Notes: generated from the letters alone by a model not told the origin. 18,834 bases of DNA from a virus (IMGVR_UViG_3300045988_036394), one strand, 5' to 3'. Counted from the stretch's first letter, positions 2,929-18,834 are shown. A program made the numbers and translations.

Positions 2929-4152
2929 TTAGAATGCGGGTGGATTAGATTTTCCATCCCACACGCTCAAAAGCGAGTACGCTTGGTTGTATCGTGTTGT
3001 GTACGGGCCGAACGGAAACGTGCTTAGAATGTTGTTTTTAAGCTGTGCGAGGTTCGATGCTTTCGGCACCTTGAGAGCGTTGGCGGGCGACTGGTGATAT
3101 GCAGTTGTCCAAAGAATCTGCATCTTGACGTCATCGTACTGCTTCGGATAGCCCGCGTAGTCTTCCGCGAACTGCTTGCGTTGACCGTCACGCGACTCAT
3201 TGCGTCCCGCCCACGTGCGAAACGCTGTTGCTTCCGCCGAGGTGAGCGAACGCTTGAACGTACCGCCCGACTCCATGAGTGCCGCTATTTCAGGCGCGGC
3301 GGCCTTGAACGCATTGTATCCGGTTGAGTCAGCGGCTTTCATCGCGTTCAACACTTGCAAGCGTCGCTCGAAACTCCATTGCGCAATGCCAATGCCCTGC
3401 AAGTTCGCGGCTTCGACTGCATCCCAGCGCAAACCCGCCTCAACCGTGCCGACGACATAGAGGGCGTACGAATTTTCTGGCGATATCGAGGTGGATGGAT
3501 GCGCCTGTCCGTTGTTGCTGGACGGCTGTGATTGCGACGCCTTTTCTGAAAAATTATTGGCGGTGGTCCTGTGGAATATGCGGGTCCGCGTTCCAGCATT
3601 ATCGCTTTCATGCAAGTAGAGGTTATCGCCTTGCCAGTGTATCCACGCGCCACCGCGCGCGGAGTCGGGGGAACCGTGGCTATTGTCTCCTGTCGGGTTC
3701 TTCTCCGTCGAGGTTGTGCCACCCCCTTCGCCAAGCGCCTTCGGGTGAAGATAGCCTAAGAATGCAGTTAGGTCGAACGTCATGCGCTGCGCTGGATTAG
3801 GGTTTTGAGACAATACGGTGATGCGTCCGTTATGCACGCCGTCCTCCATGACAATGCTCACGTGCGAGCCGGTATGTTGGCTTGAGAAATTCCAGAACGC
3901 CACGTCACCTTTGACGGGACTGTAATTGGCGGGCTTCTTCTCGAAAATCTGCGCCATCTTCGCATTCGTGGGGAAACGCGTATAATTGCCTTCGGCGTAT
4001 CCGGTTGGCGTGATGCAATCGCTTACGGACGCACCGTATAGATCCATGCAATATTTGGCCCACAAGTCCCAACATTGAGCGCCATACGCCCCGTCCATGT
4101 CCCAGAACCGGCCTTGAGTCTGTTTAATCCAATCATCAAAAGTAATAGCCAT
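2929..4152 (-). CDS. Tail-associated peptidoglycan hydrolase: N-terminal CHAP plus C-terminal lysozyme-like domain (functional analogue of phi29 gp13)
   Basis: The N-terminus is paralogous to the endolysin CHAP (DMDGAYGAQCWDLW, GDVAFW, SHVSIV, SQNPN). G/S/T-rich linkers follow. The C-terminal domain has TVEAG...GIGIAQWSFERR, typical of the phage tail lysozyme family. The gene occupies the gp13 slot after the appendage genes. Confidence 0.8.
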   Translation of the reverse strand: MAITFDDWIKQTQGRFWDMDGAYGAQCWDLWAKYCMDLYGASVSDCITPTGYAEGNYTRFPTNAKMAQIFEKKPANYSPVKGDVAFWNFSSQHTGSHVSIVMEDGVHNGRITVLSQNPNPAQRMTFDLTAFLGYLHPKALGEGGGTTSTEKNPTGDNSHGSPDSARGGAWIHWQGDNLYLHESDNAGTRTRIFHRTTANNFSEKASQSQPSSNNGQAHPSTSISPENSYALYVVGTVEAGLRWDAVEAANLQGIGIAQWSFERRLQVLNAMKAADSTGYNAFKAAAPEIAALMESGGTFKRSLTSAEATAFRTWAGRNESRDGQRKQFAEDYAGYPKQYDDVKMQILWTTAYHQSPANALKVPKASNLAQLKNNILSTFPFGPYTTRYNQAYSLLSVWDGKSNPPAF

Positions 4153-6916: not shown

Positions 6917-7729
6917 CTAGTGACCGAGATTGTAGGCGAGACTCGTGCTATAAAGCTGCGGGACGTTGATCATGTTGTCGCCACTGCCCCACATACCTAA
7001 AAATAGGGTCTCAAGCGAGTTAATGACCATTATGTCGATGTTTAGCATGGTGTTACGCCAATCCTGCAAGAGCTGTGATTGCGAACCGCTGGTACCGAGC
7101 GTGTGCGACATGCTGTTGCCTTTATCAGAGGAATGCGAAAAATCGGTGTTGCTGGTACTGGACGCGGTGGCGGTACTGTCCTGCTGTGTGCTCGTATGCG
7201 TGTTGCCCGTCGAGTCCGTTTGGCTTGCGGTTGTGGCGTACTTGCGGAAGTCATCGATGCGAGTTTGCGGAAACTCCGAATTAAACGTCATGCTGGAATT
7301 GTCGGCGGTGGTGTCGGACGTGCTGTTGGCGCTGGACTCGTTCGACTGTGTGCCGCTTGATTTTCCGCTGGACTCATTCGTGCTGGTCGAGTCCATTTCA
7401 TGCCGGACATCGGACGTGATAAACGGGTCGAACTTGCGCTGTGCCGACAAATAGAGCTGGTTGAAATAGTCCATCTGCTCTCGCATGGTACGGCCTAGAT
7501 AAAACACGAACATTTGCGGCGTTTCGCTGCCGATTTCGCGCAATGCGTAGTGTGCCACGATTTTTTCGTTGAGCTTTGCGCGGTATGATTCATCAAAAAT
7601 CGGATAATATTGCGAGCTTAAATGCAGTTTTTCGTCCGTATTAAAACCGCGCGCAATCAGATTACCAAGGGTCAACGTATAATCCGCCATACTGTCCTTG
7701 ACAGCGTATATGCTCAAGTCCTGTACCAT
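6917..7729 (-). CDS. Lower collar protein (phi29 gp11-like)
   Basis: The N-terminal block YPIFDESYRAKLNEKIVAHYALREIGSETPQMFVFYLGRTMREQMDYFNQLY is the pattern I associate with picovirus lower collar proteins. A long S/T-rich region follows. The start overlaps the connector stop (TAATG). Confidence 0.7.
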   Translation of the reverse strand: MVQDLSIYAVKDSMADYTLTLGNLIARGFNTDEKLHLSSQYYPIFDESYRAKLNEKIVAHYALREIGSETPQMFVFYLGRTMREQMDYFNQLYLSAQRKFDPFITSDVRHEMDSTSTNESSGKSSGTQSNESSANSTSDTTADNSSMTFNSEFPQTRIDDFRKYATTASQTDSTGNTHTSTQQDSTATASSTSNTDFSHSSDKGNSMSHTLGTSGSQSQLLQDWRNTMLNIDIMVINSLETLFLGMWGSGDNMINVPQLYSTSLAYNLGH

Positions 7730-8670
7730 TAGTTTTCTTCCTCCTTGTTTCCGTCAACGTCCAGCAAACCGCCAGAAGTGGTGTCGTTCCATTCGATGCT
7801 TATTGGTTTGCCTAAGTCTGCCATTTGCGGCCACAGTCGGTTAATCGTGTCGCACGCCTGTTGACGCGCCTTAAGATAGCTTAGACGGAAAACGTTGGTG
7901 CGGCTGTTTCCCGCAGTGACTTCCGATTCGAGCAGACGTTCTTTCTTTTCGGTCGTACTGTTGTCGATACCGAGATAGTTTACAAGCTCGTTCCAGATTT
8001 GCGTTTTCGTCGTAATGATTTTGTCCGCCATAAAGGGCGTCATGTTTGGAAAGGTTTGAAACATTCCAGTAATATCCGCGCTGTCATACGCGTAGATATA
8101 GGGGTCTCCGTCTTCTCGTGCCTTAATAAGATTCTGCGCGGTGAGTTTATTGGTTTCGGACGTGGCGATAATCAAAGGCACGCTGATATTGTCGAGGTTC
8201 ACGTCCAGCGCGCGGTCAGCAATCGCCAATCGTGTCGCGTAATTCCACATGACATCAATCATGGTGCAACGCAATTGGTTATCCCAAATAGGCACGCATT
8301 TCTTGCTTCCGATTTGGGGATGCGAGTAGTTCGTGGCAACCGGTTGGAATGATGTCGGATTATTGTAGTTGTTGACTCCGCCGATATTTCCAGAGGTGAC
8401 CATAAAACGGCGGACGCCCTTGCGTTCGTCGGGAAAGAAGAGTGCAAGACCGTTTTCAAACAAGGTCAGTTCCAAATAGCGTTCATCAATATACGGGGGC
8501 AAATTAATCCATCTGAAACGTGACACTGCCAACATTTCAATCAATTTCATGTACTGGTTGATTCGTAGGCTTTGCCGCATTTCAGGCAGATTAAGATTGC
8601 CCCACATGGAGCCGAGCACGCTTTGGTTATCCCAGTGCGCCGCCTTCTTTGCGTTATTACGTTTACCCAT
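7729..8670 (-). CDS. Head-tail connector / portal (phi29 gp10-like upper collar protein)
   Basis: 313 aa against 309 aa in phi29 gp10. By-eye matching blocks are FRWINLPPYIDERYLE (phi29 FEWENLPPTINPSFLE), WNELVNYLGIDNSTTEKKERLLESEV ([26 protein letters not shown]) and RQQACDTINRL (REEACEKINEL). Confidence 0.9.
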   Translation of the reverse strand: MGKRNNAKKAAHWDNQSVLGSMWGNLNLPEMRQSLRINQYMKLIEMLAVSRFRWINLPPYIDERYLELTLFENGLALFFPDERKGVRRFMVTSGNIGGVNNYNNPTSFQPVATNYSHPQIGSKKCVPIWDNQLRCTMIDVMWNYATRLAIADRALDVNLDNISVPLIIATSETNKLTAQNLIKAREDGDPYIYAYDSADITGMFQTFPNMTPFMADKIITTKTQIWNELVNYLGIDNSTTEKKERLLESEVTAGNSRTNVFRLSYLKARQQACDTINRLWPQMADLGKPISIEWNDTTSGGLLDVDGNKEEEN

Positions 8671-11030: not shown

Positions 11031-12746
11031 TCAGGCGGAAACAGTGACTTCTGCCGTTCCAGCAGCTCCCGCGAACTTCACGGAGACATTGGCAGTGCCC
11101 GCCGCAGTTCCAGTAAGCACACCGTTAGGGGTGATGGTCGCGTGGGCGTCCACAGTCCACAGTGCGAGGTTGGTCACGTCCGCGGTGTTGCCGTCCGTCT
11201 TGGTGGCGATCGCCTTAAGCGCTACATGCTCCTTGACTTTGACCGACTTTTCGCCCTGAATCTCAATGGACTCGATGGCTCCGGCTTTCCAACCGCCCAT
11301 CCATGCGCCAACCACCGGCACGGACAACGCGGCGGAAACCGTCTGATCAATCTCAGGCGTGGCCGGATTGATATAGGTTGCCTGAGCGGTGACCTTAAGC
11401 GTTTCGGCGGTTTCGTCAAGGCCACAACGCAAAATACCGTCGTTGTCGATAGTCGTAAACTGCGAGGTTGCGCCCTCGACGGCATACTTAATACCTGTCG
11501 GCTGGAACGTAGCCGTCTCCTCATTGACGCTGGAAATAGTGGAAACCACCTGCACCAAGTCACCACGCGACACGTTTTCCGGAGTGATGGCGTCCTGTCC
11601 GTACTTCCTCACGCGCAGCTCGAACTTAGGCGTAGAAGTGGTGAGAGTATCCGGCAGAGTCACAGACTTGGCGGAGCCTTCACCTGTCCAAAACAGTATC
11701 GCGTTCGCAAACGGGTTAGGAGTAATACTGCCCCTGTGCTTAAAGAAGATATTTCGCGTTCCGTCAATCGGGTTAACGGGGGAGTTGGTGGTCTCCAACA
11801 TTTCGTCCCAGCAGAAGAAGAAGTCTTCCGTGGTCAGAACCGCCTGCACCTTACCAGCCGCACCACCGATACCAAACATGTCTTCCGGAATCGGGATAAT
11901 CCGGTACGGGACATTGACTTTATCGATATTGAACGCGGCGGCGAGGGCTTCGACGTTGAGTGCAGCAATTACCTGCGGAGTGGCGAAGAGAATGGCTTCC
12001 GAATCACGCCACGGAGTCACCCAAGACATTGCGTTATATCGTGGCATGGCACTCATTGGCGACGCCTTCAATTCGTTCGCCACTTGCTGAATGAGACGAA
12101 GCAGATTCTTGGCGTCGGCTTCGGTGGAGTCAGGTGCGCCGACGTCCTTGGTATGGACTCGGTAGAAACCGCCCTTGCGCGCGTATTCCGCGAAGGTCTG
12201 TGTCTTCATCAAGTACATGTCGTTTCTATCCGAGAGGATAGGCGCGTTCATGATTTCAGCGATATAATCCGACATGCCCGATTCACCGTCGAACGCAGTC
12301 AGGAGCGCGTCCTCCGGAATGGTGACGGGGTAATAGTGGTCAAAAGTCAGGGGGTGGAACACCGAAGCAGTCGGAAGCGAGTAACGCCCGTACACATCAT
12401 CGCCCAAGTACTCTTTGTTGAAATTGCGGGTACGCGCCTTGACGAGACCCACGGCGGCCTGTTCGTAAGTGGAACCGTAGCGCTTGAGAGTGCGCGGCGA
12501 ACCAATGAGTTTCAGCGGGTCATCCCAGTCCGCGTGCTGGACATAAAGGCCAATCAGTCGCTGAATCAATACCCCTGTGAACTCGTCACGCAGATAGGGG
12601 AAATTGCGCATGGTATCCACCGCGTTGCGGATATTGCCCTGCGTTGCGCTCGGGATACGGGTCTGGAACTGCGGTGAAGTGGCGGAACGCACGGCGTTGA
12701 ATATCTCAACGTCACCCTTGCCTGCCAGTGGTCGAATATTAGACAT
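11031..12746 (-). CDS. Major capsid protein (phi29 gp8-like) with C-terminal Ig-like (Big_2-type) domains
   Basis: The N-terminal blocks NAVRSATSPQFQTRIPSATQGN....FTGVLIQRLIG.......DPLK resemble phi29 gp8 [22 protein letters not shown]...FITSLVDRIG....NPLK. The C-terminal 80 aa (IESIEIQGEKSVKVKEHVALKAIATKTDGNTADVT...GTANVSVKFAGAAGTAEVTVSA) is a typical Big_2 repeat. SD AGGAGGTAA. Confidence 0.9.
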   Translation of the reverse strand: MSNIRPLAGKGDVEIFNAVRSATSPQFQTRIPSATQGNIRNAVDTMRNFPYLRDEFTGVLIQRLIGLYVQHADWDDPLKLIGSPRTLKRYGSTYEQAAVGLVKARTRNFNKEYLGDDVYGRYSLPTASVFHPLTFDHYYPVTIPEDALLTAFDGESGMSDYIAEIMNAPILSDRNDMYLMKTQTFAEYARKGGFYRVHTKDVGAPDSTEADAKNLLRLIQQVANELKASPMSAMPRYNAMSWVTPWRDSEAILFATPQVIAALNVEALAAAFNIDKVNVPYRIIPIPEDMFGIGGAAGKVQAVLTTEDFFFCWDEMLETTNSPVNPIDGTRNIFFKHRGSITPNPFANAILFWTGEGSAKSVTLPDTLTTSTPKFELRVRKYGQDAITPENVSRGDLVQVVSTISSVNEETATFQPTGIKYAVEGATSQFTTIDNDGILRCGLDETAETLKVTAQATYINPATPEIDQTVSAALSVPVVGAWMGGWKAGAIESIEIQGEKSVKVKEHVALKAIATKTDGNTADVTNLALWTVDAHATITPNGVLTGTAAGTANVSVKFAGAAGTAEVTVSA

Positions 12747-12766: not shown

Positions 12767-13048
12767 TTAGTCAAACAAGTCTTCGATGGACTCTTGCGTC
12801 TCGTCGTTGTCGCCGTCGTTGCCGGACGGTGCGGGATCGTTGTAGCCGAGCGTGTCCAGCATGGCTTTCAATGCGGCCAATTCCTTTTCGAGTGCGTCAA
12901 GTCGTGCGGAAACGTCCGGCTCCTGCTTCTGTTCCGGCTCCGGCTCCTCTTTCGGCTTAACCTCGTCATCTACGGTTTGCGTCTGCTGTTCCTCTTCGGT
13001 CGGCGGCGGAGTAGTGATTTCCTCACCTTCACCGTTTGGGTCTGCCAT
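12767..13048 (-). CDS. Scaffolding protein (phi29 gp7-like)
   Basis: A 93-aa very acidic protein with a coiled-coil segment (ARLDALEKELAALKAMLDTL). The C-terminal ETQESIEDLFD resembles the gp7 C-terminus ETITIEDLEAK. It lies immediately upstream of the capsid gene. SD AAGGAG. Confidence 0.7.
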   Translation of the reverse strand: MADPNGEGEEITTPPPTEEEQQTQTVDDEVKPKEEPEPEQKQEPDVSARLDALEKELAALKAMLDTLGYNDPAPSGNDGDNDETQESIEDLFD

Positions 13049-13085
13049 GCAAAACTCCTTACGTTAGTAGAGTATTTCCATCAAA

Positions 13086-13094
13086 ATTATATCA
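13086..13094 (-). promoter_or_regulatory. Candidate late promoter: extended -10 box TGATATAAT without a recognisable -35
   Basis: A consensus TGnTATAAT box lies about 10 nt downstream of the terminator U-tract and about 38 nt upstream of the scaffold ATG. The hexamer at -35 (CATTTT) is poor. Confidence 0.5.
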
Positions 13095-13103
13095 TGCGTC
13101 GGG

Positions 13104-13137
13104 AAAATAAAATGACCCCCGCAATCACGCGGGGGTC
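13104..13137 (-). terminator. Strong rho-independent terminator (end of the early/replication unit or of the ncRNA)
   Basis: Minus strand reads GACCCCCGC-GTGATT-GCGGGGGTC, a 9-bp GC-rich stem, followed by ATTTTATTTT. Confidence 0.85.
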
Positions 13138-13272
13138 TAACTGTCCTATCAGAGCGCGAGTTGAAAATCGTAGGGCACTACCGCCACGGTAGTGACTCCA
13201 TGTTCGGCGGCATTCTCAGCCGTGGCAATCCGACTCATATTACTCCCAGTCGAAAATCGACGCTCACAAGAC
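13104..13272 (-). ncRNA. Candidate structured non-coding RNA of about 165 nt (possible packaging RNA, pRNA)
   Basis: It is bounded by a consensus extended -10 box (13279-13287) and the terminator. The predicted 5' end (13272-13261) can pair with 13156-13143 as 5+5 bp around an internal loop. That helix encloses hairpins at 13249-13261, 13208-13222 and 13176-13194. It sits downstream of the polymerase gene in the same orientation, like the phi29 pRNA. The alternative reading is a 43-aa ORF at 13149-13280. Confidence 0.35.
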
Positions 13273-13278
13273 TCAATC

Positions 13279-13287
13279 ATTATAGCA
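13279..13287 (-). promoter_or_regulatory. Consensus extended -10 box TGCTATAAT overlapping the polymerase stop codon
   Basis: Minus strand reads ...CATGCTATAATGATTGAG. The TAA stop is inside TATAAT. The predicted start is about G13272. No -35 is visible. Confidence 0.45.
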
Positions 13288-14731
13288 TGACCATTGTGCC
13301 GTAATCATCCATGACTTGCGTTCCATGTCTAAACCTCTCGTACGGGATTGGCTGGGAAAACATGTTTCCGGCCATGCAGACATCCACTTCACCGTCATCT
13401 CGCCACCCCTCATAACGGTTCATTCCAAGGATGGTCAGTTTTTCGTATCGTGCGGCAATCTTCCATTTGCCAAGTTCGGTTGGATGTATGTCACATGATT
13501 CCACCGGCTCCCAACCGCTCAGAATGCAACCATCCGTGTTCGCGTACAAGACTCGGTCAGAGTTGGCGTGGCATACGTCCATAAGCTTGCGGCGGGCGTA
13601 AGCATTGACCCAAACCGGAACAGGCAAATAGTCGGTTTTTAGATTCGATTCTTCACGTTGCGTGACATTCCAGTCGAGAGTGATGCCGTCTTTGGATAAA
13701 GGGAGCATGACGGCGCCTTTTGGGAGACTCGCCATTTTACCTACAAGCGCGTTCATAATAAGTTTCGCCATCTGCCGTTTCTCGCCAGTTGACTTCTGTT
13801 TCAGCCCCCCCCATTCATCGACAAACGAACGGAAGAAGCCTTTGGAGCGCCTGAACTTCCACCCCCTTACATGCCGGTAGACGCTCACGTCATAGTTTTC
13901 GTTGAGCAATTGTTGGTCAATGTCAGTGAGCACGCGCGTGACGTAACCACGTGTCGAGGCAAAGCGGTTGAGTCCGTACACGCTGCGGTTGTCTAACAAA
14001 ATGGGGTATCCGTCTGGTTTAAGTTCCGCGCGAAACGTAAGTTCATCGCAATGCAATGGCATGTCATTATCCTGCTTGTATTTGCCGTCGTATGGTTCCG
14101 GTTCACCCCACGGCAACCACTCGTCACGCAGAATACTGGGATACATGCTATTGCAATCAACGTCGATAGCCTTGCCATAAAATCCTTCTCTGGTCAGCAT
14201 GAAACCGCCGATATAGGCGTCATGCAATGACTTTTTGGTATCCGACTCAAGTTGTGGAAATTTGTCGTAATACCATTTCCACTCGCCGGACGCGAAAGCT
14301 TCCATGCTTGCACCTCCTGCGGTGATTTTACATAATCCACGGTTGCCGTATTCTCTCAGGATGTTGAGCATTTGGGTATCGGTCATGGTGAGACGGCAGT
14401 TCTCCCGTAAAAGATTTGATATGTCGAAAAAACGTGCGGAATTTTCTCGGTCAATACGCACGCTAAAACTGAAAAACTTGCCCTTTTTCGAGACAATCGC
14501 ATCCCAACTTAAGTTAGAGTTGTGTTCGTTATGTGGGAGGGAGTGTACGACGTGAGCCATAAACGGTTCAAGCAATTCTGGATTAGTCACGTAGACGGTG
14601 AGTTTGCCGCCTGACATGATGGACGCCAAAAGGCGATTTGGCGCGGTGACGTCACGCAGGACGGTTCCGTCCGTACAGCGTATGACGTTATCCGCGCACC
14701 ACAATCCTATCCTTTTGTCTTGCGTAGTCAT
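13280..14731 (-). CDS. Family-B protein-primed DNA polymerase (phi29 gp2-like), compact 483-aa form
   Basis: Motif A is IDVDCNSMYPS, motif B is KLIMNALVGKM and motif C is LYANTDGC. GLCKITAGGASMEAF matches phi29 GLDRMTAGSDSLKGF, and C-terminal LGKWKIA and VCMAGN match LGYWAHE and KCAGM. I prefer the start at M21 of the track ORF (ATG 14731, SD AAAGGA), which removes the overlap with the upstream gene. Confidence 0.93.
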   Translation of the reverse strand: MTTQDKRIGLWCADNVIRCTDGTVLRDVTAPNRLLASIMSGGKLTVYVTNPELLEPFMAHVVHSLPHNEHNSNLSWDAIVSKKGKFFSFSVRIDRENSARFFDISNLLRENCRLTMTDTQMLNILREYGNRGLCKITAGGASMEAFASGEWKWYYDKFPQLESDTKKSLHDAYIGGFMLTREGFYGKAIDVDCNSMYPSILRDEWLPWGEPEPYDGKYKQDNDMPLHCDELTFRAELKPDGYPILLDNRSVYGLNRFASTRGYVTRVLTDIDQQLLNENYDVSVYRHVRGWKFRRSKGFFRSFVDEWGGLKQKSTGEKRQMAKLIMNALVGKMASLPKGAVMLPLSKDGITLDWNVTQREESNLKTDYLPVPVWVNAYARRKLMDVCHANSDRVLYANTDGCILSGWEPVESCDIHPTELGKWKIAARYEKLTILGMNRYEGWRDDGEVDVCMAGNMFSQPIPYERFRHGTQVMDDYGTMVML

Positions 14732-14757
14732 GGTATAATTCCTTTGCTTACCGTCCG

Positions 14758-15819
14758 CTATTTTTCCAGTGCGCCCGCTTCCGTCATCCACCTATCGAAC
14801 TGCTGCCTTGAGCGCTGATAGCCCTTGCTATTGTCGCGGAATATCGACGTGAAACCGTGCCGAACTGGGTCATACACTGTCCAGTCGAACACGATACGGG
14901 GGGCGTCCGTCTGTTCGATGAACGCGCGTTTTTGCGCTGCCGATAGGCCACGGAATCGTTTCAAGCGTTTTGAGCCGAGCGTGGTAGCCAAGATTTTCTC
15001 AAAAACCTCATAGCGTCCGCGCGACATGTAAGATGGCCATTTATGTTCTTCATACAAGTCTTTGCCCTGTTTGCCTGTTCCCCGCTTTTTGGACGGTTTG
15101 CGTTTCTGCTCGGTACGCAGCCCCAGTATTTCTGCTACGTCGTGCATCTGCTCACGCAATTCATTGCGATGGCCGCTTTCCAGTTGAGAGCGCACGAAAG
15201 CTTCATCACTCAGAACGTTCGTCATTTGCAAAAAATCAGTGAGTTTTGACGGGATTATCTGGTTACGCCCAAACCCCTCGCCGGTGGTTCCGGTGATTTC
15301 AGCCACTCGCTGCTCATACACGCTACGTTGCGGCATTGCCTGATATCTGTTCCATTCGTTGATTTTCCGTCGTGCCGCATTGATTTTCCGCTGCTGCTGC
15401 CTGAGCAGTTTACGTCGTTTCACCACCGGCTCCGCGCTGATCTGTGCGTCCGAGATGGGCGCACGCTGGGCAAACATGTAATCTTTCTTCGTCGGCTTCT
15501 CAGCAGCGGCGGCATGGTATGGTGTTGCTTTCGCGTCCGCTATGGCCTGTTTCTTTTGCCGTTCCCACTCCTTGCCTAACGTTTTCGCGATATTAACTAG
15601 TTGTTTGTCTGCGGTTTTGGCGAGATTCGAGTGAGAGTACGAGCCAAGCTGCGTAACATTACGCGCGGCACGTGCTTGCGCGGCCTGTATCTTCTTAATG
15701 TGCTTGCGTTGCTGTCTATCGGCTTTGATGGCAACGCTGCTAATGTCCGGCTTTTGGTGGGTGCGATAATTCTGTGACACGACTGCGCGGGGTGCTGGTT
15801 TCTTCCTCTTCCCTGACAT
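14758..15819 (-). CDS. Putative terminal protein (replication primer)
   Basis: It lies immediately upstream of the polymerase gene, as phi29 gene 3 does. The 353-aa product is very basic, with N-terminal MSGKRKKPAPR and further K/R clusters. I could not align it to phi29 TP by eye. The start is taken at ATG 15819 (SD AAAGGA), because the longer track start lies inside a hairpin. Confidence 0.55.
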   Translation of the reverse strand: MSGKRKKPAPRAVVSQNYRTHQKPDISSVAIKADRQQRKHIKKIQAAQARAARNVTQLGSYSHSNLAKTADKQLVNIAKTLGKEWERQKKQAIADAKATPYHAAAAEKPTKKDYMFAQRAPISDAQISAEPVVKRRKLLRQQQRKINAARRKINEWNRYQAMPQRSVYEQRVAEITGTTGEGFGRNQIIPSKLTDFLQMTNVLSDEAFVRSQLESGHRNELREQMHDVAEILGLRTEQKRKPSKKRGTGKQGKDLYEEHKWPSYMSRGRYEVFEKILATTLGSKRLKRFRGLSAAQKRAFIEQTDAPRIVFDWTVYDPVRHGFTSIFRDNSKGYQRSRQQFDRWMTEAGALEK

Positions 15820-15841
15820 GGTTGCAGTCCTTTCAGATAGA

Positions 15842-15866
15842 GAGAGCACCCAATAGGGGTGCTCTC
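15842..15866 (-). promoter_or_regulatory. 10-bp stem-loop between the SSB and terminal-protein genes (possible attenuator or mRNA stabiliser)
   Basis: GAGAGCACCC-AATAG-GGGTGCTCTC. On the minus strand it is followed by UCUAUCU, a weak U-tract, and then the SD of the TP gene. Confidence 0.4.
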
Positions 15867-15900
15867 ATGGTAATGAACTCACATTGTGATTATAGCAAGG

Positions 15901-18369: not shown

Positions 18370-18382
18370 TCTCCCTTCCTGC

Positions 18383-18583
18383 TCACGCTTCCTCGAACGC
18401 TTCCATAAAATCATCAGCCGGAAACGAATCACAATCATCATATCCATCAATAGCCACATCATTGACCAAAGCCACATGACGCAGATTCTCAACAATCGCA
18501 TCAATATCGAAATCATCGAGCTGCTGGTCACTGTTCAGAATACAGCCCCCGGCGTAATCCTTGACGATGCTGTTGTTAATCAT
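18383..18583 (-). CDS. ITR-encoded 66-aa highly acidic protein (right copy), first gene of the early operon
   Basis: Identical to 252-452(+). Here no terminator follows it, and the next gene starts 13 nt downstream. Confidence 0.7.
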   Translation of the reverse strand: MINNSIVKDYAGGCILNSDQQLDDFDIDAIVENLRHVALVNDVAIDGYDDCDSFPADDFMEAFEEA

Positions 18584-18615
18584 TTTATTTCCTTTCCCTT
18601 GAAGCGGATAACTAC

Positions 18616-18624
18616 AATATAACA
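18616..18624 (-). promoter_or_regulatory. Mirror copy of the ITR extended -10 box, likely the early promoter of the right-end operon
   Basis: Reverse complement of 211-219. It sits upstream of the first gene of the long minus-strand early operon. Confidence 0.35.
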
Positions 18625-18792
18625 CAAACAAACGAACGACACGCCCAAAATAAAAAAAACTTAACAGGTTAGTATAAAAAAAATATAATAGAGACTGGAA
18701 TAAAACAAAGCGTCAACGGTGACACAGAACAAAAAAAAATAATACACAAATAAAAAAAACCACAAGGGAAAATCTTCACACAACCCCACACC

Positions 18793-18834
18793 CTGTCTCT
18801 TATACACATCTCCGAGCCCACGAGACATGCGCAG
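18793..18834. other. Illumina Nextera (Tn5) library adapter (reverse complement of 1-42)
   Basis: CTGTCTCTTATACACATCTCCGAGCCCACGAGAC followed by ATGCGCAG. This is the exact reverse complement of bases 1-42. Confidence 0.95.

Follow-up and report, generated by a model that had tools for sequence, protein, structure and literature searches.

The only RNA known to be part of a viral DNA-packaging motor is the prohead or packaging RNA (pRNA). Reviews of 2016 and 2024 know it only from phi29 and its relatives, the later one naming Bacillus phages, and a survey of 2025, run with Infernal and seeded with the pRNAs of phi29, GA1, and DLc1, added 12 more, all in phages also encoding homologues of gp10 and gp16. 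Known pRNAs share only about 12% sequence similarity, and that of phi29 consists of domain I and a conserved domain II with a linker between them. Here, we describe an RNA gene in a stretch of viral DNA of 18,834 nt (IMGVR_UViG_3300045988_036394; in the following the window, whose coordinates are used throughout), a near-complete genome of a small podophage whose long open reading frames (ORFs) are all located on the minus strand. The RNA unit lies on the same strand, directly behind the DNA polymerase gene, between positions 13287 and 13104. Judging by analogy, we consider it likely, with a probability of roughly 0.7, that its product is a new, sequence-unrelated pRNA family outside the Bacillus phages. 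A first reading of this DNA from its letters alone (the sequence-only reading) had already proposed a candidate pRNA at this site, and its coordinates and sequence strings turned out to be correct.

The unit opens with an extended -10 promoter, TGCTATAAT (13279-13287), which overlaps the polymerase stop codon TAA (13282-13280) just as the sequence-only reading had placed it, and which went unreported by a consensus promoter scanner because it has no -35 match. The coding strand of the window holds only three such boxes, at 15897, upstream of the ORF preceding the polymerase, at 13287, and at 13094, before the capsid operon. Of 91 distinct sequences from relatives, 90 retain the motif TGnTAT(A/G)AT, whose end is separated by 6-7 nt from the first G of the 5' helix. 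This G, G13272, is both the predicted start of the transcript and the first base of a 5'/3' helix. From promoter to terminator, the predicted RNA measures about 167 nt. Its end (13104-13142) comprises a 5-nt linker, a 3' hairpin with a GUGAUU hexaloop, and a U tract, forming an intrinsic terminator. The stem at 13137-13114 has ten pairs, eight of them G-C, and is followed by ATTTTATTTT; the hairpin and the AUUUUAUUUU behind it together span 13137-13104. The strong hairpin and the U tract thus stand as first described, apart from the stem, which had been given as 9 bp and has 10. Stems of 8-10 bp are found in 83 of 87 relatives, with 19 different stem sequences, and the hexaloop (13120-13131) is kept in 88 of 91 despite the variable stem. 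Such a near-invariant loop is unusual for a plain terminator and suggests that it is recognized by something; by analogy, the 3' hairpin is a possible counterpart of pRNA domain II.

A structured domain with a terminator and an ORF behind it, located between two operons, also resembles a transcription-attenuation leader, so the unit might be read as a cis element, either the structured 3' end of the polymerase (early) transcript with its terminator or a leader controlling read-through into the capsid operon. We regard this as improbable. A second extended -10 box, TGATATAAT (13086-13094), bounds the unit outside the RNA, between its terminator and the downstream ORF of 93 aa, and serves this ORF and the capsid operon; as TG(A/G)TATAAT, it is conserved in 87 of 91 relatives. 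With a box of its own behind the terminator, the capsid operon is independent of read-through. Furthermore, the 19 versions of the terminator stem contrast with a conserved upstream domain, no antiterminator pairing was seen on inspection by eye, and the promoter of the unit is conserved at the nucleotide level within the last polymerase codons, set to start exactly at the helix.

Related loci were collected by a polymerase-seeded search of IMG/VR, which gave the 80 closest loci, and an alignment-based polymerase search returned the same 80. More divergent loci were added by further searches, namely L284, L285, L287, and L289 as well as L376, L414, L325, and L354; searches seeded with the polymerases of L205 and of phage BadAargau2 yielded one and no new locus, respectively. 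A 17-mer scan of metagenome contigs produced mostly chance matches in GC-rich environmental contigs; four matches were real, and two of these were the new lineages L376 and L414. A covariance model, R1, built from 24 diverse sequences with a hand-checked structure, found exactly one match in each of 100 related loci, scoring 90-150 bits and lying directly after the polymerase gene wherever the locus includes that gene. The polymerases of the R1-positive phages are 64-91% identical; in the metagenome contigs checked, including L376 with a polymerase identity of 64%, the match sits between the polymerase and the capsid gene. Mean pairwise identity is 79.5% for the RNA, 78.2% for the 3' end of the polymerase gene, and 73.7% for the downstream ORF. 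Taken at the sequence level, the unit of promoter, RNA, and terminator is a real conserved non-coding RNA gene.

The same DNA does contain a 43-aa ORF (13280-13149) whose ATG overlaps the polymerase stop as TAATG, an arrangement that would fit a small protein translationally coupled to the polymerase. This ATG is present in only 30 of the 91 distinct relatives, where the frame runs for 2-90 aa, most often 5; indels across the ORF are not multiples of three, and substitutions are compensatory across helices rather than codon-periodic. Start-codon and frame non-conservation, together with the lack of a PHROG match for the ORF, rule out the coding reading, to which we assign practically no probability. 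The sequence-only reading had named a conserved 43-aa frame without covarying helices as the pattern that would speak against an RNA; the reverse was found, the frame being lost and the helices covarying.

The fold itself is supported by folding energy and covariation. The 169-nt RNA folds with -68 kcal/mol (z = -4.0 versus dinucleotide shuffles), and none of 200 shuffles folds as well. Structure statistics were taken from a model-guided alignment of the 91 distinct sequences, with the 3' partners slid by 1-3 columns as controls. Standard pairs occupy 98.2% of the pair cells versus 32-49% in the slid controls, and compensatory, two-sided changes are seen at 26 of 42 pairs versus 3-10; no column shuffle reaches any of the observed pairing or covariation values. 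Since the alignment was made to fit the model, these counts are somewhat biased in its favor; a plain MAFFT alignment gives the same picture with 94.4% paired versus 36-49%. Two of the checks proposed by the sequence-only reading, folding and a search for compensatory changes, came out in favor of a structured RNA.

The outermost element is a long, interrupted 5'/3' helix, which we call A-like. Its 5' strand (13245-13272) consists of GUCUU, GAGCGU, GAUUUUCG, and GGG, separated by conserved internal loops, and its 3' strand (13143-13175) of CCC, CGAUUUUC, GCGCUC, and AGGAC. GUCUU pairs with AGGAC, GAGCGU with GCGCUC, GAUUUUCG with CGAUUUUC including U-U mismatches, and GGG with CCC. Helices 1-5 of this element comprise 19 pairs that are 98.9-100% paired, 11 of them with compensatory changes; they include the closing helix that had been drawn by eye, which covaries and comprises GUCUU/AGGAC and GAGCGU/GCGCUC. 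The divergent lineages are instructive: the GGG/CCC helix becomes GAG/CUC in L203 and AGG/CCU in L376, L284 alters both U-rich strands jointly, to GAUUAUCG and CGAUUAUC, and L205 and L289 have exchanged nearly all bases in the outer helix and in the 8-bp hairpin described below without losing a pair. For the U-rich segment, the sequence-only reading had drawn a local hairpin (13261-13249, UCGA-UUU-UCGA). This fits the data, and the comparison slightly favors a long-range pairing of 13258-13251 with 13170-13163, which we tentatively prefer because it shows more two-sided changes; the segment is thus probably part of the long 5'/3' helix. As a separate observation, the outer internal loop (13266-13267/13148-13151) occurs in two coupled versions, 5' GU with 3' UGAU and 5' CU with 3' ACAU, and columns 11, 140, and 141 of this loop have high mutual information without Watson-Crick logic, which may reflect two clades or a non-canonical motif.

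Inside the junction, a C-like helix (helices 6 and 7) is formed by a 5' strand (13230-13239: UAUG, an internal loop, UCGG) and a 3' strand (13199-13207: CCGA, A, CAUG) that is contiguous with the stem of the next hairpin; six of its eight pairs show compensatory changes, and 91-96% of the cells are paired. A 7-nt bulge on the 5' side, AUUGCCA (13223-13229), resembles the CE bulge of pRNA and leads into an E-like hairpin, CGGC-UGAGAAU-GCCG (13208-13222), with 4 bp and a 7-nt loop. The stem of this hairpin is nearly invariant, with one compensatory change to CGAC/GUCG in L285, and its loop reads UGAGAAU or UGAAAAC. The third arm is a D-like hairpin (helix 10), CACUACCG-UGG-CGGUAGUG (13176-13194), with 8 bp and a UGG loop, in which seven of seven counted pairs have compensatory changes and 99.5% of the cells are paired; the 3' strand of the long helix abuts it directly, with no unpaired nucleotide between them. 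Both hairpins had been part of the sequence-only reading and hold up, the second with covariation at every counted pair. Within the E-like loop (13212-13218), columns 67 and 70 of alignment A7, three bases apart, vary together (G/U in 61, A/C in 27, and G/C in 2 sequences) and have the highest mutual information in the RNA. G-U and A-C form isosteric wobble pairs, although positions this near to one another cannot form a pair; the coupling may come from clade structure or recombination.

For comparison with phi29, we used the match of the Rfam model RF00044 to phi29 (145 bits) with its printed consensus structure. Following the strand, the phi29 pRNA begins with the bulged A helix of 22 bp, and a junction of 1 nt leads on to the 9-bp C helix and a 9-nt 5' bulge. 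There follow an E hairpin of 4 bp and a 6-nt loop, the contiguous 3' strand of C, a 3-nt junction, and a D hairpin, whose 6 bp enclose a loop of 5 nt and from which the chain passes directly into the 3' strand of A. The window RNA starts with the interrupted 19-bp helix, a 5-nt junction (6 nt in most relatives), an 8-bp helix, and a 7-nt 5' bulge, and goes on with a hairpin of 4 bp and a 7-nt loop, the contiguous 3' strand, a 4-nt junction (3-6 nt across relatives), and a hairpin of 7-8 bp with a 3-5-nt loop, followed directly by the 3' strand of the long helix. On the predicted fold, the window RNA is therefore built from the same elements as the phi29 pRNA, in the same order and on the same sides, with similar sizes. 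Likewise, both genes have their own promoter and lie downstream of the polymerase gene on the same strand, and the division of phi29 pRNA into domains finds its parallel in a domain of 135 nt, which a 5-nt linker connects to the 3' hairpin. UGAG is common to the E-like loop and the phi29 E loop UUGAGU. Differences are found in the bulge (7 nt versus 9), the E loop (7 nt versus 6), and the D loop, which is UGG in the window and closed by a pair that must open for a 4-bp pairing, as well as in the A-like helix, which has two conserved internal loops, ACU/UA beside the junction and a U-rich one of 3x3. There is also no sequence or covariance-model similarity, and the host is actinobacterial.

The bulge of the phi29 pRNA ends with AACC, four bases that pair with GGUU in the D loop of the adjoining molecule, and the pRNAs examined in the 2025 survey use a GG/CC core with up to two A/U pairs. 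A corresponding complementarity is found here: the last four bulge bases, GCCA (13226-13223), are complementary to the D-like loop region UGGC (13186-13183), with a CC/GG core flanked by an A-U and a G-C pair. The two central C-G pairs are compatible in 91 of 91 sequences (four as U-G at one pair). The end pair, columns 56 and 104, is G-C in 73, G-U in 11, A-U in 7, and unpaired in none; an A in the bulge occurs only together with a U in the loop, a combination that arose in at least six lineages (BD811P2; L287, L106, and L325; L203; L284 with L414; L289; L376). The sister sequences L205 and L289 differ at both positions, with GCCG/UGGC in the former and ACCA/UGGU in the latter. In an alignment of 85 sequences, 97.4% of the bulge-loop cells are paired at the true register versus 3-66% when slid. 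A mutual-information scan is dominated by helix pairs and clade effects, and the bulge-loop pair is outside its top 30 because it is too rarely variable. The sequence-only reading had extended the contact to seven base pairs, GCCACGG with CCGUGGC. Its GCCA/UGGC part of 3-4 bp stands; the 7-bp helix was rejected, as its three further pairs compete with helices that covary independently.

The phage also encodes homologues of the phi29 motor proteins, as had been claimed from the sequence alone. A gp16-type encapsidation ATPase of 355 aa (1730-2797) aligns in full length, over residues 7-341, with phi29 gp16 (7jqq, E = 1.6e-36), and a gp10-type connector of 313 aa (7729-8670) matches phi29 gp10 (PDB 1h5w, E = 1.1e-28); PHROG assignments agree in both cases. 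The sequence-level expectations of a pRNA that could be tested here all agree with what was found in the locus. By analogy with phi29, the RNA would be transcribed from its own constitutive-type extended -10 promoter up to the intrinsic terminator and would fold into a three-way junction. Copies would then form a ring on the empty prohead, around its connector, by pairing the GCCA bulge of each molecule with the UGGC loop of the next; the C, E, and D arms would contact connector and capsid. The long 5'/3' helix would project outward and dock the gp16-type ATPase, which would translocate the protein-primed linear genome, with the RNA being required for packaging.

Several points weigh against this reading. 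Covariation is seen at just one of the four proposed loop pairs, and mismatches at the fourth, an A-U pair, occur in 9 of 91 sequences. Alternatively, the loop base that covaries might close the hairpin (G-C in 69, G-U in 12, A-U in 2, and A-C in 2), and if that pair forms, a loop of 3 nt is small for a kissing contact. Moreover, covariation cannot separate pairing between molecules from a pseudoknot within one molecule. The RNA lies outside RF00044: in the scan with this model that the sequence-only reading had proposed, there was no match in the window at the gathering threshold of 100 bits and none even at E <= 10 in 12900-13500, the other Rfam matches in the window being sub-threshold only and terminator-driven (isrJ, anti-hemB, and similar). 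A second model, R2, built for the RNA of BadAztec-type phages presented below, matches neither the window clade nor phi29. Since RF00044 does not match this RNA and neither R1 nor R2 connects it with the BadAztec-type RNA, what ties it to pRNA is its architecture together with short motifs rather than a homology that can be detected; given the similarity of about 12% among known pRNAs, the RF00044 result lowers the claim of membership in that family rather than that of a functional analogy. The phi29 CCA bulge, which has a function with the ATPase, has no sequence counterpart here. The genomic position, finally, had been said to match that of phi29, which needs correcting: the pRNA gene of phi29 is found at the end of the genome, about 0.8 kb past the polymerase gene, whereas the window genome is transcribed in one direction and carries its gene at the early/late junction, right after the polymerase.

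A second explanation is a conserved, structured phage small RNA (sRNA) with a role other than packaging, such as a regulator of the switch from early to late genes, a decoy for a host protein or a defence system, or a compact cis pseudoknot in which bulge and loop of one molecule pair. Any sRNA might have its own promoter, a terminator, and a conserved fold, the gene stands exactly at the junction of replication and structural genes, RF00044 homology is not detectable, and cis and trans pairing cannot be told apart by covariation; the invariant GUGAUU loop and the coupled E-loop changes (the G/U and A/C versions) are, in addition, not explained by a pRNA model. We nevertheless consider another sRNA role unlikely, if clearly more probable than a cis element. 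It would need a chance copy of the full pRNA order, including the side of the bulge, the contiguous strand, the zero-nt junction from D to A, and the CC/GG pairing, and this in a phage with homologues of the only known RNA-dependent packaging motor. No target complementary to the loops was seen elsewhere in the window, where R1 has its single site. Generic phage sRNAs and the 3' ends left by intrinsic terminators are likewise short intergenic transcripts with a promoter and a Rho-independent terminator; however, they normally lack a 135-nt multi-helix fold covarying across 91 sequences and a conserved loop-bulge complementarity.

A pRNA at this junction receives a further lead from phages of Bifidobacterium asteroides. 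This sister set comprises BadAargau2, BadAztec1, and five metagenomic relatives (L206:2925-3100 and L207:2780-2955 among the set, with L416-L420), whose polymerases are about 30% identical to that of the window. Their gene order is the same, with SSB, a putative terminal protein, the polymerase, the RNA, a small ORF, and the capsid gene. The gap of about 175 nt between polymerase and ORF begins with the same promoter box, TG(C/T)TATA(A/G)T, over the polymerase stop, and contains an unannotated RNA of about 125 nt. For four close sequences, a pRNA-type model gives 98.5% paired cells versus 22-52% when slid, with six compensatory pairs, two of them in the C-like helix. The long 5'/3' helix and the three-way junction are common to the sister RNA and the window RNA; in both, a 5' bulge precedes a hairpin of 4 bp, and the D-like hairpin has the loop UGG. 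The E hairpin of the sister RNA, CGUA-UUAAGU-UACG (loop UUGAGU in L417), is nearly equal to CUGA-UUGAGU-UCAG of phi29; its bulge has 9 nt and ends with ACC, and the D loop UGG is flanked by U, thereby containing GGU. Unlike the window RNA, it has a 3' hairpin with a GAAA-type loop and a conserved GGCGGCAC, but no U tract, and the two RNA sequences cannot be aligned. With filters off, R1 found nothing significant in BadAztec-type phages, Av-1, Eggerthella LE1-1, MT835826, or MT835861, and Rfam found nothing in the BadAztec-type loci. The last four bulge bases have an exact downstream complement in three of seven BadAztec-type RNAs, the chance rate being 0.10-0.36 per sequence. With so few sequences, we take the sister RNA as a lead for the pRNA reading and not as proof.

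Two further phages showed features at the equivalent place. In the Actinomyces phage Av-1 (L294:3622-3935), the interval from the polymerase to the capsid module holds an annotated 'ORF 7' with 55 aa, an annotated promoter, about 70 nt, and a strong 14-bp terminator with U tract directly before the next gene, so there is possibly a small RNA unit at this junction, which looks too short for a pRNA. The human faecal phage MT835826 (L292:3734-3896) has a 163-nt gap after the polymerase gene with a TTGACA-17-TACAAT promoter including a TG. Behind the promoter, about 110 nt of structured sequence, whose ends are paired, reach up to the next start codon without a terminator; R1 has a weak match there (8 bits, E = 3.5).

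Regarding its overall gene content, the window can be assigned, on sequence similarity, to a phi29-type podophage of Bifidobacterium. The closest cultured relatives are the Bifidobacterium phages BP1 and BD811P1-3, with 73-80% nucleotide identity around the polymerase. Among structural proteins, PHROG and PDB searches also identified the major capsid protein, which is of phi29 type (11031-12746), along with a lower collar and a tail protein; the other genes recognized are those for a B-family DNA polymerase of the protein-primed type (13280-14791), for an SSB, and for lysis. The 93-aa ORF just upstream of the capsid gene (12767-13048) and a 363-aa ORF just upstream of the polymerase (14758-15849) had no PHROG match; by position, they would correspond to the scaffolding protein and the terminal protein of phi29-type genomes, and the annotation of Av-1 has a terminal protein at the place equivalent to the latter. 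Two proteins, encoded at 501-1166 and 2929-4152, have a common N-terminal endolysin-type domain (PHROG families including phrog_635 and phrog_8781): the first, with 221 aa and next to the holin, is likely the endolysin, and the second, with 407 aa and located in the structural (late) gene block, is probably a tail-associated cell-wall hydrolase. The window ends, 1-453 and 18382-18834, form a perfect inverted repeat of 453 bp. The outermost 42 nt of each end (CTGCGCATGTCTCGTGGGCTCGGAGATGTGTATAAGAGACAG) contain what we take to be a Nextera transposase adapter; the extreme ends are thus artefacts of library preparation, which leaves at most about 411 bp for the true terminal repeat, and this repeat may be real or an assembly effect.

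The paper on BP1 makes no mention of such an RNA, the interval of about 230 nt from the polymerase to the next ORF carries no feature in the four annotated records (BP1 and BD811P1-3), and our full-text literature searches gave no report of a pRNA in phages of Bifidobacterium or other actinobacteria. By analogy, the RNA is likely a pRNA whose sequence family is unrelated to the known one, and both its host phylum and its genomic position would be new. For the annotation of very abundant human-gut phages, this would add a missing gene, and the polymerase family concerned counts more than 170 protein clusters in public data. Since cultured pairs of phage and host exist (BP1 on B. pseudocatenulatum U19, BD811P1-3 on B. 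dentium DA811), the hypothesis is directly testable. A second, sequence-unrelated family in actinobacterial phages would reveal the features under real constraint (the topology, the pairing of loops around CC/GG, and the E hairpin) and would offer a new three-way-junction scaffold for RNA nanotechnology. We lean, with somewhat less confidence than for the window RNA itself, towards the view that RNA-dependent packaging is not peculiar to Bacillus phages, and that the abundant podophages of human-gut Bifidobacterium, and probably those of honeybee-gut B. asteroides, have their own fast-diverging families at the junction of polymerase and capsid genes. Such pRNAs would then have been missed until now because sequence models cannot see them. 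A second family would also bear directly on the origin of the pRNA, as an ancestral element of the phi29-type motor or as a late invention of Bacillus phages; if the view proposed here is true, the pRNA would be an ancestral and widespread part of this motor.

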